Shown: positions 2,472 through 26,729 of the stretch, piece by piece
How positions within the stretch are numbered: the first letter of the stretch is position 1
How the letters are laid out: each line of letters begins with the position of its first letter
IMG/VR virus record: IMGVR_UViG_3300042196_000315
Span: 1 to 51,835 of that record
From: a virus
Taxonomy: Duplodnaviria > Caudoviricetes
Length of the DNA stretch: 51,835 nucleotides
Direction: 5' to 3' (one strand)
Program-made: the position numbers and the translations under genes
The notes under the pieces: model-generated
Databases searched by the model: none
The model's input: only the letters and a program-made list of their open reading frames with translations
Told to the model about the DNA's origin: nothing

Positions 2472-2930
2472 TAATGGCGTTCTGGCCCAGGAGGTGCATA
2501 ACCTGGCCTCGTTGGTTGAGGAGCTAAACGAGACGGTAACGGTCGCCATGAAGGAATTCAGGATGGTAGCCACGTACCTGGAAAAAAAAACCGGCAGCAG
2601 GCAGATGAGATCAGAAAGCTCGCCCTTCGCGTCGCTGCCCTGGAATCTCCCAAGCCGGTTACAAAACCCATCTCGTACCCAAAACGGTCAAGACGAACGG
2701 CCGTCAGGGTTTGGCGGCTGATCGCTCAACATTTCGACGAGGAGGAATTGGGCCTGCTGGCGTTCGAGTATGGGGTAGATGATGAGGAGATCGCCGGGGA
2801 AACCAAGTTGAGCAAAGCCAGAGCACTTGTTGAACACGTTTGGCGACGGGGAGATCTGCAAGGGTTAATTTTTCTAGCCCAGGACCAGCGGCCGAATGTG
2901 ACAGATTGGCCAGTTATTCCGGAGCGGTGA
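2461..2930 (+). CDS. Coiled-coil + effector-associated-domain (EAD7-like) protein, split by a -1 frameshift at the A9 run 2582-2590
   Basis: -1 frame after A9 reads NRQQADEIRKLALRVAALE...LIAQHFDEEELGLLAFEYGVDDEEIAGETKLSKARALVEHVWRRG. Confidence 0.6.
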
Positions 2931-2933
2931 TCG

Positions 2934-3552
2934 CCTCATCATTTCTAACGCTGTCGGCCGCCAGCCCGGGCACCCCTCATCAAATCTAATGAGGTCGGCC
3001 GCCGAGCTTGACAACCTCATCAAAATTGACGATAATGCCGGCAGATGGCTAACCTGGTTAGCACCGCCTCGCCGAAAATGACGAGGGGATCCGGAAAACA
3101 TCGTCAAATCTAATGAGGAGGTCCCGAGATGGACTTAAACAGCTACGACGGCGGCAAGGGCCTGGTATTCAGGACAATCATCAACGAAATTCCCCCACAC
3201 GACATTTTCATAAGCGGCTTCGCCGGGGCCTGTGCGGTCGCCAGAAACAAGCGGCCGGCAAAGCTCAATATTTTGATTGATGCTGATGAGCGGGTAATTG
3301 ACGGTTGGCGCTCGATGCTCGTCAACTCTGACGAGGTCTCCGGGGACATCGCCGGAAATGACGAGGCGGCCGTTTCCTCGACGACATCACCGGAAATGAT
3401 GAGGGGCGCGGCCATCGTCAAAAGCGACGAGGCGATCACCTCATCAGAATTGACGAGGTATGCCCGGGCTGGTGATCGCCTCATCAGAATTGACGCTGCT
3501 GCAGCCACGTCGGAATTGATGAGGCTGGCCAGCATCACCGAAAGTGACGAGG
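2934..3552. repeat. Array of 13 degenerate 20-bp palindromes, consensus C(C/A)TC(A/G)(T/C)C(A/G)-N4-TGA(C/T)GAGG
   Basis: Copies start at 2934, 2975, 3015, 3067, 3099, 3317, 3347, 3385, 3413, 3439, 3479, 3505, 3533. Confidence 0.9.
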
Positions 3553-4043
3553 CTACCAGGTGGATTTTGGTACATGGCGATTTCCTGGAAGTGTTGCCGT
3601 ATTTGCCAGTGACCAGGCGCACGGTAATGTATTTGGATCCGCCATACCTCATGGAAACGCGCAGCAGCCAACGGCCGCTTTACCGCCATGAGTTTGGCAG
3701 CCAGGAAGAGCATGAGGAGCTATTGACGGCCGTTTCCCGGCTCAACTGCCGGGCGCTTCTCTCAGGCTACCAGAGCGAGCTATACGGCCGTCTGCTGGCC
3801 GATTGGCGCAGACTGGACTATTGGACGGTGAACCGGGCCGGGACGCGGGTATGTGAATCATTGTGGCTCAATTATGATGAGCCGTTGAGGTTGCATGATT
3901 ACAGGTGGTTGGGCGACGGGTGGAGGGAGCGCGACCGCATAAAGCAAAAGGCCAAGAGATGGGTCAATAGATTCGATTCTTTGCCGGTGCTGGAACGGCG
4001 CTTCATTTTGCAGGCGCTGGATGAAGTTGGGTTGTTGGACTAA
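3129..4043 (+). CDS. DNA adenine methyltransferase (Dam/D12-like) with ~80-aa repeat-derived insertion
   Basis: YDGGKG...IPPHDIFISGFAG (motifs X/I), YLDPPY (motif IV), LLSGY, ESLWLNY; GAGGAGG RBS. Confidence 0.9.
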   Translation: MDLNSYDGGKGLVFRTIINEIPPHDIFISGFAGACAVARNKRPAKLNILIDADERVIDGWRSMLVNSDEVSGDIAGNDEAAVSSTTSPEMMRGAAIVKSDEAITSSELTRYARAGDRLIRIDAAAATSELMRLASITESDEATRWILVHGDFLEVLPYLPVTRRTVMYLDPPYLMETRSSQRPLYRHEFGSQEEHEELLTAVSRLNCRALLSGYQSELYGRLLADWRRLDYWTVNRAGTRVCESLWLNYDEPLRLHDYRWLGDGWRERDRIKQKAKRWVNRFDSLPVLERRFILQALDEVGLLD

Positions 4044-4047
4044 AACC

Positions 4048-4089
4048 GAAACGGCCGATACTCAGGAGGGGGCGAGTATCGGCCGTTTC
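4048..4089. terminator. Hairpin between convergent operons (probable bidirectional terminator)
   Basis: 16-bp perfect IR GAAACGGCCGATACTC / GAGTATCGGCCGTTTC. Confidence 0.65.
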
Positions 4090-4128
4090 ATGCCATGGGT
4101 TGGGTGTAATTCGATTATATCCTACGTG

Positions 4129-4320
4129 TCAATCGCTCTTGTTGGCTTTCACGCGCCGGATAATGGCCCTCCGGTGTTTCTTGTAATACCGTTTGTTGCC
4201 GGCCGCCCTCAAACACGCCTGAGAGCAATACCTGATTTGTGCAATCGCACCGGGGGCGGCCGTTGGGCTGGCGCGGTCGGCGAGGTCAAATTCTCGTTTG
4301 CAATGCTTGCAGGTTTTCAT
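4129..4320 (-). CDS. Small Cys-motif (zinc-binding) basic protein
   Basis: CKHC...YCSQAC; overlaps upstream stop. Confidence 0.6.
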   Translation of the reverse strand: MKTCKHCKREFDLADRASPTAAPGAIAQIRYCSQACLRAAGNKRYYKKHRRAIIRRVKANKSD

Positions 4321-4616
4321 GTCTTATCCACCATGTAATCGCCGGAATTGGCTGAGCGATACGGATCGCGCCACAGGCCAATGACCAGGCCGAATAAAAC
4401 CAGGTACACGCGGCCGCCTTCGTAGCCGCCACGCCTGGCACTGAAACGACGGCCGAAGCCGAAACCAATCAGGCGGAATTCGCCAGCGGATAGGCCAACT
4501 GTCCACTCGGCAGCGGGTAGCAAATTGGCGGCATTCTCGGTGTACGGTCGCCAGCCAAGCCGCCAGAGGATGGTGGCGAGGATTAGGGCGATGATGAAAT
4601 ATGGTATACTTTGCAT
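4317..4616 (-). CDS. Small membrane protein
   Basis: AAGGAG RBS; two hydrophobic segments. Confidence 0.6.
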   Translation of the reverse strand: MQSIPYFIIALILATILWRLGWRPYTENAANLLPAAEWTVGLSAGEFRLIGFGFGRRFSARRGGYEGGRVYLVLFGLVIGLWRDPYRSANSGDYMVDKT

Positions 4617-21940: not shown

Positions 21941-22438
21941 ATGAACAAATACAAACTACCAAAAGAAGTCATTCCCGGCGCGGCCGCCCGCCTGCGGGAT
22001 GCCCTGGCCAGGCGCATCGTTCTCCGCCAGGCCGGGCTTGATACCTACACCTACGGCATGAAGTCAGGCGGCCGGGCCATTGTCTGTTTGTGCTGCGGAT
22101 TAGGCAGCAGTCACCCACAGGACATCGAGCGGCTGTATTGTGGCTTTTGCCAATGGTTTCATGAGGACACGCCCGAAAGCCCCCACCGGCTGCGCCAGGC
22201 GGCCGAAATCCAGCGCGCTCACGACATCCTAACGGCCGTCATCACAGGAGATGTGGACATAGAAATGGAAGACGATCAGTTGTGGCGAGCGGCCGCCGAC
22301 GTGCTTTGTTGGGTATTACAGCACGATCATAACGATGCCTTCGCCCGCAACCTGGCCAATTTAGAGGAAACGATTGCTGAGGCCGGCTATGAATTGGAAG
22401 ATCGCGGCCGGCCGATACCCCCTGAAGAACAACATTAG
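21941..22438 (+). CDS. Hypothetical protein with zinc-binding motif
   Basis: GAGGAGG RBS; CLCC...YCGFCQWFH. Confidence 0.7.
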   Translation: MNKYKLPKEVIPGAAARLRDALARRIVLRQAGLDTYTYGMKSGGRAIVCLCCGLGSSHPQDIERLYCGFCQWFHEDTPESPHRLRQAAEIQRAHDILTAVITGDVDIEMEDDQLWRAAADVLCWVLQHDHNDAFARNLANLEETIAEAGYELEDRGRPIPPEEQH

Positions 22439-22454
22439 TGTTTGCGCGCAAACA
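22439..22454. promoter_or_regulatory. parS-like palindrome 2, abutting the parB RBS
   Basis: GTGTTTGCGCGCAAACAC (18-bp perfect) followed by AAGGAG and parB ATG at 22470. Confidence 0.7.
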
Positions 22455-22469
22455 CAAGGAGAATCAACC

Positions 22470-24410
22470 ATGCTGCTCATTAACTTTCCCATTAATCGCA
22501 TACACCCCAATCCCTGGCAAACTCGCCAGGGCCTCGACCCGGCCTACATTGCAGATCTGGCCGCTGACATCAAGCGTAACGGCCTGATGCAGCCGCCGGC
22601 CGGCCGGCTGGTGGTTGACGCGGGTGATCGCCTGGCGGCCGTAGAGGCGGGTGGCTTTAGCACCGTTGCGGCCGTGCCCGATTTGCTAATCAGTGATGAC
22701 ATTTACTCCGTCCAATTGGCCATCGGTCACAACCGCCTGGCCGCTTACCGGCTGCTGGCTGAGCAGGAGCTGCACTGGTCGGACACCATACCCCTCCAGC
22801 TTGGCTGCCACGATGACCAGGCTATGGCCAAGATGGCCTGGTCGGAGAACGCCCAACGCAAGGATTTGACGCCGCTTGAGGAGGCCCAGGCTATTGGGAA
22901 AGCCATGGACGACTTCGGCTGGTCACAAGAGCAGGCCGGGGAGCATTTTGGCCTGAACCGTTCCACCGTCGCCAACAAACTCCGCCTGTTGCAACTGCCT
23001 GACGATGTTAAGCAGCAGCTTCACGGCCGTATCATCAGCGAGCGCCAGGCGGCCGCCCTATTGCCAATCTATCAGCTACCGGAACCGGCCCAGAAAAGAG
23101 CCGAGAAGCCAACAGATTACTGGACAAAGAGTCCGGCCGAGCTATTGGAGTTAGCTGGCAAGGGCGCCAGCTCTGACGATCTGCGGCAGCAGGTAGACAA
23201 AGCCGTCGCCTACGCAACGGCCGATCTCTCCCGCGCCGTCTTCCCGCTGGATCACGATTTCCTTGCCCGGCAAAACCGGCCATTTGGCGGCCTGCAAAGC
23301 GGCAAGTGCATCGGCTGCCCAATGAGATTAAAGGGCGACCGCTGCGGCGACGAGGGCTGTTTTGAGGCCAAAGAGGAGGTCTGGAAGAGCGACATACTGG
23401 CGGCCGCCAACAGCCAGACGGGATTGGCACTGCTGCCAAAGGACGTGATGGGCTATTACTGCGAGAGCTTCACCTACGATGAAGCGGCCGGTCACCACAT
23501 CATCGCCACCGGCTGCAAGCACAACCGCCTGCACCTGGAATTCCGTCCCGGCAGCAAGGGTATTTTTGTCGAGGGCTGCCCGGACGTGCGGATTGTGTGC
23601 AACAAGAGCGGCCGTGCCTGCTACTGTCTGGCCGCCTATGAGAAGGCCAATGCCGGGCCGGATCCGGCCGCCGAGCGGGAAAAGCGCATTAAGCAGCGAC
23701 ATAAGAAGCTGGTGGTGGAGCCGGCGCGGGAGGCATTGGCGGCCAGGCTACAAGAAAATGACCAGGCCGCCTGGCGTATGGCTATCAAGGCCATTAGCTA
23801 CGGCTTCCGGCATGAGGAGATTTTGGAAGGCGACTGGGAGAAGCTGCTGGCTAAATTTGCACTCAAGGCCGTTGGGGATGGTGCCGGCTATTACTGGGGC
23901 GAGTGGGAGGACGTGGCGGCCTCCCGCGAGAAGATGAATAAGTACCTGGAATTCGTGGGCCTTGTGCCCGACTACCCGGAGATCCCCGATGCGCCGCCGG
24001 ATAGCAAGCACGAGCGCATTATCTGGAAGATTGGCAAGGTTGCGGCCTGGATGGAAGGGGAGGCGGATCCGGACCCGGCGGCCGTGCGTGGCAATATCAC
24101 CAATTTGGAGAAGTACCGCAAACAGATTCAGGAGATACCCGTGCCGCAGATGACACCGGAGCTTGAGGCGGCCTTTGCGCAGTCGGCCGAACTGTTGAAG
24201 CGGTTGGACGGGATGCTCGCCGGTTCCGGTAATAGCGGTAATTCCGGCAATAGCGGCAATGATGAGGCTGGGCAGGAAACGGCCGTATCTGGCGACTATC
24301 ACTACACCGAAGAACTGGAAACGTACATCGGCCTGAAGGAGCATGAAATTAGCCAGATAAAGCAGCAGTTGGCGAACGCGGACGGTCGCGCTGAGACGGC
24401 CGCCAAATAG
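22470..24410 (+). CDS. parB: ParB/RepB/Spo0J-family protein with long C-terminal extension
   Basis: IHPNPWQTR, LAADIKRNGLMQP, GHNRLAA, ENAQRKDLTPLEEA, HTH WSQEQAGEHFGLNRSTVANKLRLL; Cys cluster. Confidence 0.9.
   Translation: MLLINFPINRIHPNPWQTRQGLDPAYIADLAADIKRNGLMQPPAGRLVVDAGDRLAAVEAGGFSTVAAVPDLLISDDIYSVQLAIGHNRLAAYRLLAEQELHWSDTIPLQLGCHDDQAMAKMAWSENAQRKDLTPLEEAQAIGKAMDDFGWSQEQAGEHFGLNRSTVANKLRLLQLPDDVKQQLHGRIISERQAAALLPIYQLPEPAQKRAEKPTDYWTKSPAELLELAGKGASSDDLRQQVDKAVAYATADLSRAVFPLDHDFLARQNRPFGGLQSGKCIGCPMRLKGDRCGDEGCFEAKEEVWKSDILAAANSQTGLALLPKDVMGYYCESFTYDEAAGHHIIATGCKHNRLHLEFRPGSKGIFVEGCPDVRIVCNKSGRACYCLAAYEKANAGPDPAAEREKRIKQRHKKLVVEPAREALAARLQENDQAAWRMAIKAISYGFRHEEILEGDWEKLLAKFALKAVGDGAGYYWGEWEDVAASREKMNKYLEFVGLVPDYPEIPDAPPDSKHERIIWKIGKVAAWMEGEADPDPAAVRGNITNLEKYRKQIQEIPVPQMTPELEAAFAQSAELLKRLDGMLAGSGNSGNSGNSGNDEAGQETAVSGDYHYTEELETYIGLKEHEISQIKQQLANADGRAETAAK
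24371..24391 (+). repeat. 21-bp dispersed element, copy 3
   Basis: Identical to 10648-10668. Confidence 0.85.
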
Positions 24411-24773: not shown

Positions 24774-25329
24774 ATGACAACCCTTTACATCTTCGACGTT
24801 GACGGCACGATTGCCGATAGAGATTCAGTCGGCATCTACCTGCACTTTATTGCCTGGCTCAAAGAGCAGCGAGCACGAGACGTAGTTGTTGCCCTGGCCA
24901 CCAACCAGGGCGGCGCGGGCCTACGGTATTGGATGGAATCGGCCGGCTTCGGCCGGCTTCGGTGACCCCGAAAAATACCCAAGTGAAGCAGAGATTATCG
25001 TGCGCCTGGAAACCATAGCCAATCAAATAGAGTACTGGCTCGGCCGCCCGCCCATTGTGCAGATGTGCTTTGCCTACCAGTCCAAGAAAAGCGGGCAGTG
25101 GGGGCCGGTTCCTCCCGGCTGGGAGAATGATCCCGCCTGGCAGCAAAACGGCCGTAAGCCGGACATCGGCATGATCCGCCGCATTGAAGACGAGATGTTG
25201 GGCAGGGGTTACGGTGACTTCCGGGTTATCCTCATTGGCGACAGTGACGAGGACAGGCAGGCGGCGAACGCGGCCGTTTGCGGATACGAGCACCCCGATA
25301 CATTTTTCGCCAGCGACAAATCATCATGA
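24774..25329 (+). pseudogene. HAD-IIIA phosphatase (PNK-3'-phosphatase/GmhB-like) frameshifted by a 10-bp tandem duplication
   Basis: FDVDGT and ATNQGG in one frame; RKPDIGM and IGDSDED in another; GGCCGGCTTC x2 at 24941-24960. Confidence 0.82.
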
Positions 25330-26729
25330 CTGAGCAACAAATCACGGCCGCCGATTTCCCACCTGTTCGCACGCAAACAATCCCCCTGGCCCTGGTAGAG
25401 GATCACCCTGACAATCCCCGCCTGCACCCCGACAGCCAGAAAGAGGCCCTCTCCGCCAGCCTGGAGACCTATACCTATGTGCGCCTGGCAGTGGTGCAGG
25501 CCCTCGAGGGCGGCCGCTTCCGCTGGGTGGCCGGGCATGGGGTGGGCAATGCGGCCAAGGCCGAGGGCTACGCAGAACTGGAGGTGCGCGTTATCCCGGC
25601 CGAATGGCCCGATTGGCTGGTCCAGGAGTACATGGTGGCCGACAACGGCACGGCCGCCCTGGGCCAGGATGACAGCGCGAGGCTGGCCGCTATCCTGGAG
25701 CGGGCCATAGAGCGAAAGCGGGAAGTGCTGGCGATGGGCTACGACCGCGGCAGGCTGGCCGGTGTCCTGGCCGAGACACGCCACCGGGGAGGCTATGCAG
25801 GTATTAAGGGCACGGCCGAGGGGGCCGATACTGCCCGGGCACTGGCTGAGGAGTGGTCAGTGGTGCCCGGGCAGGTGTGGAAATTGGGGGAGCACCGGCT
25901 CATTTGCGGAGACGCTGCGGACCCGGGCGCGTGGGAGCGTCTGGCCGCCCAACGGGAGGGTGGGGTAGAGGGCATCTTCACCTCGCCGCCCTACGCCCAG
26001 CAGCGCAAGGGCAGTTATGGGGGAATAGCCGAGGCTGATTACCTCCATTGGTTTGAGCCGGCCCAGGCCAATGCCAGAACCCACCTGGCGGCCGGCGGCA
26101 GCTTCTTCCTCAATATCAAGGCCCACTCCGAAGACGGCCGTCGCTCCCTCTATGTCCTCGATTTGGTGCTGGCCATGGCACGAAGATGGGGCTGGTCATT
26201 CATTGATGAATTCTGCTGGACGCGCCAGGGACTTCCCGGCCGCTGGCCTAACCGGTTTAAGAACGCCTTTGAGCCAATCTTTCACTTCGCCCGCTCGCCT
26301 GACATCCGCTTCTTCCCGGAGGCGGTCATACGGCCGTTCTCCCCGGCTACTATCATCGGCAGCCGTCACTATGTCGGCCGCAACACCGACCACAGCTACC
26401 ACATCTCCAACAATGTCACGGCCGCCGGCCTGGATGGTGCCCTGCCTTCCAATGTGCTGACAATCCCTACCGGCCAGACGGCCGAAACGATAGGGGCCTA
26501 TCACGGCGCTGCCTTCCCCCCGGCGCTGGCCGAGTTTTTCATTAAGGCGTTTTCTCAGCCGGGAGATACCTGGTGTGATCCATTTCTTGGTTCCGGAACG
26601 ACACTGATAGCCTGCGAGACCCTGGGCCGGCGCTGTGTGGGCATTGAGATACGGCCGGAATATGTGGCCGTCGCCCTGGCCAGGTGGCAGCACAAGACCG
26701 GCCGGCTGCCAAGGCTAATTGCCAATTGA
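25326..26729 (+). CDS. ParB-like N-domain fused to amino-methyltransferase (N4-C/N6-A, beta class)
   Basis: HPDNPRLH...AGHG...ADN; HRLICGD; FTSPPY; DPFLGSGTT. Confidence 0.9.
   Translation: MTEQQITAADFPPVRTQTIPLALVEDHPDNPRLHPDSQKEALSASLETYTYVRLAVVQALEGGRFRWVAGHGVGNAAKAEGYAELEVRVIPAEWPDWLVQEYMVADNGTAALGQDDSARLAAILERAIERKREVLAMGYDRGRLAGVLAETRHRGGYAGIKGTAEGADTARALAEEWSVVPGQVWKLGEHRLICGDAADPGAWERLAAQREGGVEGIFTSPPYAQQRKGSYGGIAEADYLHWFEPAQANARTHLAAGGSFFLNIKAHSEDGRRSLYVLDLVLAMARRWGWSFIDEFCWTRQGLPGRWPNRFKNAFEPIFHFARSPDIRFFPEAVIRPFSPATIIGSRHYVGRNTDHSYHISNNVTAAGLDGALPSNVLTIPTGQTAETIGAYHGAAFPPALAEFFIKAFSQPGDTWCDPFLGSGTTLIACETLGRRCVGIEIRPEYVAVALARWQHKTGRLPRLIAN

Follow-up and report, generated by a model that had tools for sequence, protein, structure and literature searches.

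What purpose is served by thirteen copies of a 20-bp inverted repeat, placed before and inside a methyltransferase gene of a phage, was the question raised by this locus. The window, i.e., the whole stretch of DNA that was analysed, is a record of 51,835 bases with direct terminal repeats of 127 bp. It encodes an integrase, a terminase, a tape measure protein and two ParB-like proteins, and the phage is temperate and tailed.

Table 1. Features of the repeat locus, numbered by window position.
Feature	Position	Strand	Description
Repeat flanks	2924..3562	.	Restriction/methylation target words, methylatable base at +5 from repeat edge
Leader array	2934..3118	.	Five 20-bp dyad repeats (2934, 2975, 3015, 3067, 3099); likely operators
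Sigma70-type promoter-like site	3008..3036	+	TTGACA-17-GATAAT; 11/12 matches; sole such match in 2700-4400
Ribosome-binding site	3115..3121	+	GAGGAGG; overlapped by copy 5 (sequence)
Upf31-type gene P0001	3129..4043	+	304 aa; D12-class methyltransferase fold lacking the target-recognition domain; helical domain at the C-terminus
Intragenic array	3317..3552	.	Eight repeats (3317, 3347, 3385, 3413, 3439, 3479, 3505, 3533)
DPPY amino-methyltransferase motif	3636..3647	+	aa 170-173; invariant in 128/128 non-redundant homolog loci
C-terminal helical domain	3876..4040	+	~aa 250-304; predicted dimer interface
Terminator-like hairpin	4047..4090	.	16-bp perfect arms, directly 3' of gene, between convergent gene arms

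The repeat array and the gene that it accompanies

The first-pass annotation had placed thirteen copies here with spacers of 6–32 bp, the last leader copy overlapping the ribosome-binding site, and these coordinates were confirmed (Table 1). It had also spoken of palindromes in different reading frames. The intragenic copies occupy two of the three frames. Symmetry, however, was seen only in the consensus, individual copies being imperfect dyads (4–8 of 10 pairs). With a degenerate repeat pattern, 32 matches were counted over the two strands, compared with 1.95 ± 1.88 in 100 shuffles (maximum 12). A matrix derived from the 13 copies scored these at 20.9–28.8 and the next-best site in the 51.8-kb genome at 13.8. 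Strong copies of the repeat are confined to this locus within the phage genome. Contigs from three other sediment runs covered pieces of the array, and no copy-number joint was seen in them. In runs X2 and X3, low-depth contigs were near-identical over the array and carried 21–38 differences in the C-terminal half of the gene (window 3690–3890), a pattern that suggests a recombinant allele. A small ORF ahead of the array (2748–2930, + strand) encodes an EAD7 effector-associated domain (E 2.7e-11), and its stop lies three bases before the first repeat.

Locus searches with the single protein gave no match, and homologs were reached through alignments. From 160 loci, 15 that did not have both anchors or scored low and 17 that were redundant were removed, leaving 128; the same filters removed 20 of 80 metagenome loci, leaving a held-out set of 60. 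The family comprised 1,699 clusters at E ≤ 1e-30, with loci in Chloroflexota, Acidobacteriota, Pseudomonadota, Bacteroidota, Verrucomicrobiota, Planctomycetota and others. The best genome matches of the gene were in Chloroflexota (~39% identity), and named phage records gave distant methylases only (≤29% identity among the best 40 of 100). When the 128 homolog loci were scanned with the window-only matrix (threshold 11), values of 3.19 upstream of the gene, 2.57 in the linker and 2.33 downstream were obtained as opposed to 0.11 per kb farther away. The consensus repeat of these loci was CATCGCCA-N4-TGGCGATG. With the refined repeat, at least one site was present in 100 of the 128 loci and at least three in 73, while 28 had none; among the held-out loci, 48 of 60 had a site and 42 had three or more. 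The array accompanies the methylase gene on plasmids and P2-like prophages as well. Other window proteins recurred in at most 2/128 homolog loci, an antisense shadow frame excepted, and no conserved neighbouring regulator was found, the largest ORF clusters among the 160 loci comprising 26, 24 and 21 loci (judged by sequence and context).

Across 447 repeat sites, arm pairing was near independent expectation and lacked G-U bias, findings that point to a double-stranded protein site and do not favour a hairpin. Structured RNA or hairpin repeats of the CRISPR or REP-like kind were rejected given no arm covariation, no G-U bias and no Rfam match. Half-site identity was 5.24 within loci and 5.06 between them; locus-specific operator variants are thus too slight to demonstrate protein-operator co-evolution. 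The expectation that the insertion always consists of palindrome arrays failed, since at a strict threshold at least one copy was found in 18/34 long linkers and 32/94 short ones, and linker length was weakly related to copy number (rho 0.17, p 0.05). The view that selection acts on DNA rather than protein was supported by the repeat geometry and flank rule of the homolog loci.

Certain loci differed in arrangement. In L041 (3176–3228), L044 (2698–2750) and L055 (3496–3515), judged to be P2-like prophages, few sites occur at the gene and single or paired sites occur 0.5–1.3 kb upstream, these too with restriction/methylation words as flanks. One Chloroflexia chromosome carries three related cassettes (L090, L106 and L114), each with a promoter operator and leader array. 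A diverged repeat with CAGCGGCG-type arms occurs upstream and in the linker of L004 and L012, where the promoter geometry is kept and linkers of 373–388 bases are filled.

The gene product, P0001, matched PF02086 (E 1.9e-8) and scored 37.2 bits against TIGR00571, below the curated cut-off of 114.85. Its AlphaFold2 model (mean pLDDT 84.9) consisted of a confident Dam-like core and two C-terminal helices, had EcoDam and DpnM as best fold matches, and showed the linker at low confidence (pLDDT <50 for residues 80–101). With the Dam/DpnM enzymes (PF02086, TIGR00571), P0001 shares the catalytic fold and, with the departures near the SAM pocket given below, the GGK and DPPY motifs. It differs from them by an extra C-terminal domain and by the lack of a target-recognition domain, which appeared as a deletion of ~88 residues when a 40-relative profile was aligned to DpnM (also Mcbe1). 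At that point lies the intragenic array, which encodes an in-frame linker of ~79 aa. Thus, the earlier description of a Dam-like methyltransferase holds for the fold but not for target recognition, and the in-frame insertion reported to separate the SAM-binding part from DPPY is real, with a length of ~79 codons. Linkers of the three closest proteins (P0002–P0004) are shorter. Both gene halves were in one frame in 125/128 homolog loci. Like DPPY, G33 was invariant (128/128) and D53 is kept in P0001, which near the SAM pocket nevertheless departs from the family at S29 (E in 116/128) and C35 (G in 102/128).

A search of the Atlas with the C-terminal domain returned this Upf31-type family alone. 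The proposal of a binding platform for a dimeric protein gained support from a homodimer prediction on the short-linker homolog P0004, which scored 0.69 compared with 0.00 for the best control; the mark for a dimer was reached by 20/30 solved pairs and 1/23 single chains. The predicted interface comprised residues 200–251 with 100% contact agreement and pLDDT of at least 83. A basic helix of the C-terminal domain may read the repeat. Residues that differed between 73 array-rich and 28 array-less loci were mostly in the C-terminal helix, a comparison confounded by kinship in a weakly resolved quick tree.

The promoter under copy 3 and the relationship to Upf31

Two features overlooked in the first reading were the content of the spacers and a promoter under copy 3. 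This copy (3015–3034) occupies the promoter spacer and provides four bases of the −10 hexamer. Shuffled sequences yielded 0.9 promoter-like matches, so that the weight of this assignment rests on conserved promoter-repeat geometry: TTGAC was at offset −7 from a repeat in 40/44 cases in homolog loci and 17/19 held-out cases. The start codon of homologs often followed 6–10 bases past the −10 hexamer. When genomes were searched with the promoter-operator pattern alone, 49 of the 54 matches stood immediately ahead of a homolog, with near-identical copies of plasmids making up many of these. In L180, L196, L198, L199 and L202, the exact pattern preceded the start codon of another gene with no homolog within 1.5 kb; judged by this pattern, these are possible further members of the regulon.

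P0001 was 42% identical over 155 aa (E 6e-37) and 43% over 67 aa (E 3e-14) to the Upf31 homolog in L148, the gene DNA of which is ~99% identical to annotated upf31.0 of IncP-1beta plasmids. In E. coli, Upf31 represses its own 68-bp promoter, which has one operator, from 4.76 to 0.09 XylE units, and repression depends on the C-terminal-domain aromatics Y180, F185 and W198 (PMC11997246), with which W260, W265 and W278 of P0001 align. Upf31 has been proposed to bind four groups of inverted repeats on IncP-1beta plasmids, published in 1998 without an explanation of their purpose (PMC11997246). DNA binding was assigned there to a predicted N-terminal helix-turn-helix, which counts against reading of the repeat by the C-terminal helix. 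As reported in the same source, no GATC methylation, SMRT signal or methylase activity of Upf31 was found, a further difference from Dam, contact with the ParB-family protein KorB was predicted, and the presence of Upf31 raised Kor-repressed operons (PMC11997246), including klcA, the product of which is described as anti-restriction (PMC7314908). Clustered restriction sites on IncP-1beta plasmids have been noted as possible integration hotspots (PMC3590792).

The likeness between the systems thus includes the methylase fold with a C-terminal dimer domain, the three repression aromatics in aligned positions, an inverted repeat on the gene's own promoter and the repeat itself, the plasmid arm CAGCATCG being the outer five consensus bases and three flank bases. 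Plasmid pAKD14 carries 18 repeat sites in four clusters and one single, and the plasmid promoter operator is followed by TGGCCA. The first-pass annotation knew of no description of a methylase gene coupled to such an array; upf31 and clustered inverted repeats have, however, been published for IncP-1beta plasmids (PMC11997246), so that gene-repeat coupling and autorepression are already known there, and the window gene, by its sequence, belongs to the Upf31 family as a member from a phage, in which an array of probable operators lies inside the gene. It differs in belonging to a temperate tailed phage, in having eight copies inside the gene and in representing a family far wider than IncP-1beta. 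The window is not an IncP-1beta backbone with korB, and this backbone is a trait of the plasmid members rather than of the family.

Certain phage modification genes are comparable in part. Hia5, Hin1523, Nma1821 and the control of Mu mom (PMC3299994) resemble the present case as orphan modification genes that end a phage gene arm and are under tight control. However, Hia5 has a target-recognition region of ~90 residues and a com gene upstream, neither of which is present in the window, where the upstream gene is the EAD7 ORF, and the passages of PMC3299994 on these genes describe no operator array.

Flanking words and the +5 position

The flanks of the window repeats contain the words CGGCCG, GCCGGC, GGATCC, GGWCC, GATC, TCGA, CCGG, GCGC, CTGCAG, TGGCCA and CCWGG. 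Counted outward from the repeat edge, 25 of the 26 flanks in the window have A or C at +5. The same was noted for 91% of the 715 flanks from homolog loci (0.87 when each locus contributed a single flank) compared with 33–61% at other positions, promoter-side left flanks and flanks shorter than 5 nt being excluded, and for 565/608 flanks of the 60 held-out metagenome loci. On pAKD14, 29/36 flanks conformed; by side (L215, L296), 18/18 right-hand but 11/18 left-hand flanks obeyed the rule.

The base at +5 is usually the base modified by known host methylases (CTGCAG, TGGCCA, CCWGG, GANTC, GATC and CTGAAG). With methyl positions taken from a subset of the supplement rows of PMC4752239, a documented methyl base was at +5 in 20/26 window flanks compared with a background of 8.9%, and in 474/715 homolog flanks compared with 57–134 at other positions and a background of 7.8%. 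The modal register coincided with the methylated base listed in those rows for 19 of 26 words. Four of these 19 matches, and with further rows GATC as a fifth, are trivial, every A or C in the word being a documented position. For CTGAAG two registers tie, and since some words contain others the 19 matches are not independent. Among the seven words missed, RGATCY, TGATCA and GGCGCC fit other documented types, CATG is a tie, and the register of CGCG may reflect GCGC; those of GATATC and GTAC fit none of the documented methyl types in the PMC4752239 rows. GATATC placed its second A at +5 in 14/14 flanks and then in 28/28 held-out flanks, whereas the rows give methylation of the first A, and a methyl type not yet documented, or another word, may lie behind its register. 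Each word generally kept to one register, while those for which two methyl types are known (GATC, GGATCC, CTCGAG, CCGG and GCCGGC) showed both. Registers were repeated in the held-out loci for CTGCAG (27/27), TGGCCA (36/36), CTTCAG (11/11) and CCWGG (30/32).

Spacers between repeats contained a palindrome with arms of at least 3 bases in 132/171 cases compared with 61 after shuffling and 33 for the locus background. Such sites also adjoined free operator ends, where 271 of 481 were centred 2–7 nt from the edge as opposed to 81 at 10–15 nt. The asymmetric words CTGAAG and CTGGAG were enriched (12 each, with 1.6 and 1.9 expected, respectively), while their neighbour CTGTAG was absent.

The notion that flank words are simply those avoided by the phage was rejected, in that CTGCAG, CCCGGG, TCCGGA and GATC are avoided but CGGCCG, TGGCCA, GCCGGC and CCWGG are over-represented. 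The rest of the genome has 2 copies of CTGCAG, 3 of TCCGGA and 6 of CCCGGG. Outside 2900–3600, CGGCCG occurs in 347 copies, ~10-fold the base-composition expectation, and GCCGGC, TGGCCA and CCWGG at 2.6–3.3-fold; 13 six-base palindromes are absent from this part and many others nearly so.

The association of flank content with host lineage varied. GANTC was present in 11/42 flanks of 8 alphaproteobacterial loci and 1/364 flanks of 47 other genome loci, taxa being assigned by hand from record titles, and the 5 alphaproteobacterial loci that bear it are at several places in a weak tree. In alphaproteobacterial rows of PMC4752239, GANTC is methylated with no nuclease listed. Chloroflexus aggregans methylates GANTC and has TGGCCA and CGGCCG as m4C motifs (PMC4752239); Chloroflexota flanks had GANTC in 0/172. 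Desulfospira joergensenii methylates GGCC and CTAG (PMC4752239), and among the listed flanks of its two loci, counted by eye, GGCC was in register in 4/24 and CTAG in 0, while many words there are outside the strain's measured methylome as given in that source. Host tuning thus looks partial, the flank catalogue appearing lineage-biased and not strain-specific.

Among the results listed in literature searches, no report of the +5 register or of phage members of the family was found; older IncP-1beta work may detail the association with restriction sites. In the parts of PMC11997246 and PMC3590792 consulted, the +5 register and host tuning are absent.

Proposed reading of host methylation and alternative explanations

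It is highly probable that the 13 repeats are operators of the gene's own product. That an operator-anchored dimer of Upf31 type reads host methylation at +5 and so gates its own promoter is given a probability of about 0.52. In such a mechanism, the dimer would repress the promoter under copy 3, with C-terminal domains that dimerise on the 20-bp dyad and so place one methylase fold over each flank, where the DPPY pocket would accept the amino base at +5. A methyl group left there by a host enzyme would change binding, most likely weakening it. The flanks would constitute a catalogue of common host methylation sites and the array would sum the types of methylation into a protein level, copies away from the promoter acting as sinks or roadblocks and short spacers centring one site between two operators such that both strands are read. 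Which way methylation would act is guesswork. TGGCCA is presumably not methylated by E. coli, and repression there of the plasmid promoter, in which this word follows the operator, indicates that unmethylated flanks allow repression. Reading is favoured over writing, steric effects and array growth by the register, which stays with the methylated base whether the word carries m6A, m4C or m5C and includes words without a nuclease.

Operators gated by methylation are familiar from pap (Lrp/Dam), agn43 and Mu mom (OxyR/Dam), and from self-regulating methylases of restriction-modification systems, e.g., M.SsoII. As in these systems, regulator sites are here interleaved with methylation sites at a promoter; there, however, one methylase word is combined with a separate regulator, whereas in this array a single register is common to many words, and the fold of a methylase belongs to the regulator itself. 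Of the autoregulatory epigenetic switch considered in the first pass, the autoregulatory part is supported by autorepression by Upf31 (PMC11997246) and the promoter geometry, and the epigenetic part may hold.

The repeat-bound protein might itself methylate A or C at +5 (m6A/m4C), shielding restriction sites or timing its own release with no sensing of host methylases. Amino-methyltransferases act on A or C, the two bases used at +5, which would suit such an activity, as would the invariance or near-invariance of DPPY and the SAM-pocket residues. Methylation confined to flanks was possibly missed for Upf31, the SMRT experiment having used a methylase-free strain, an expression vector and motif finding (PMC11997246). 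Nevertheless, CTGCAG, TCCGGA and CCCGGG, avoided elsewhere, are kept here, the GANTC flanks of alphaproteobacterial loci have no cognate nuclease in the PMC4752239 rows, methylase activity was not detected in the work on Upf31 (PMC11997246), and P0001 has substitutions near its SAM pocket; self-methylation is thus considered unlikely. A lower probability is given to autorepression alone, with flanks reflecting an extended preference or growth by duplication and methylation irrelevant. Such a role would agree with the autorepression of Upf31 through one operator in E. coli (PMC11997246), and fold-back duplication may account for centred palindromes in short spacers (77/100 compared with 14 shuffled), but it does not explain why sites adjoin free operator ends, why asymmetric sites are enriched or why words hold the register of the methylated base and not that of their centre.

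Still less probable is that the flanks serve to draw in the host's restriction enzymes or methylases themselves, for displacement, as decoys or for recombination-promoting cleavage in gene uptake, the mark itself being unread. Sites 2–7 bp from the operator edge are near enough for mutual exclusion, and the suggestion of integration hotspots on IncP-1beta plasmids (PMC3590792) is in the same direction; steric competition, however, needs no single-base register on the methylated position, and several words are targets of methylases without a nuclease listed in the PMC4752239 rows. The centromere-like or pac-like packaging site proposed in the first pass is hardly credible. Although genes for two ParB-like proteins and a terminase are present in the phage, and contact between Upf31 and KorB is predicted (PMC11997246), the array travels with the methylase gene and not with genes for ParB or terminase, is also present on conjugative plasmids and overlaps a promoter. 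In flanks of up to 4 kb searched with window queries only, the ParB-like protein was matched in 1/128 homolog loci and the terminase in 0, and in the window the ParB-like and terminase genes are ~19–24 kb from the array, the terminase gene at ~24 kb. One ParB-like protein is encoded at 22374–24410 (+ strand), while at 25278–26729 (+ strand) a ParB-like domain is fused to a second DNA methyltransferase, relatives of which are mostly in Acidobacteriota (33–39% over most of the length). By analogy with the predicted Upf31-KorB contact, the two proteins are possible partners of P0001.

Beyond this locus, methylation-reading operators may extend to a widespread family in which a methylase fold that has lost its target-recognition domain, held in place by its own operator and directed at a catalogue of host methylation sites encoded in the DNA, serves as a sequence-independent reader of methyl marks and, for phages and plasmids, a multi-input sensor of the restriction-modification and methylation repertoire of the host, a proposal that we rate at somewhat less than an even chance. 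Through the +5 rule, a single testable prediction covers the IncP-1beta repeats, the clustering of restriction sites and the conservation of the catalytic pocket, so that a feature left unexplained in a plasmid group that has been studied at length is made testable and is extended to phages of many phyla. If true, the reader model would account both for the inverted repeats and for the grouped restriction sites on IncP-1beta plasmids, and its architecture would amount to a compact methylation-responsive switch. Mobile elements across many phyla would then read the methylation repertoire of their hosts via one protein, with a bearing on host range and on the detection of restriction barriers.
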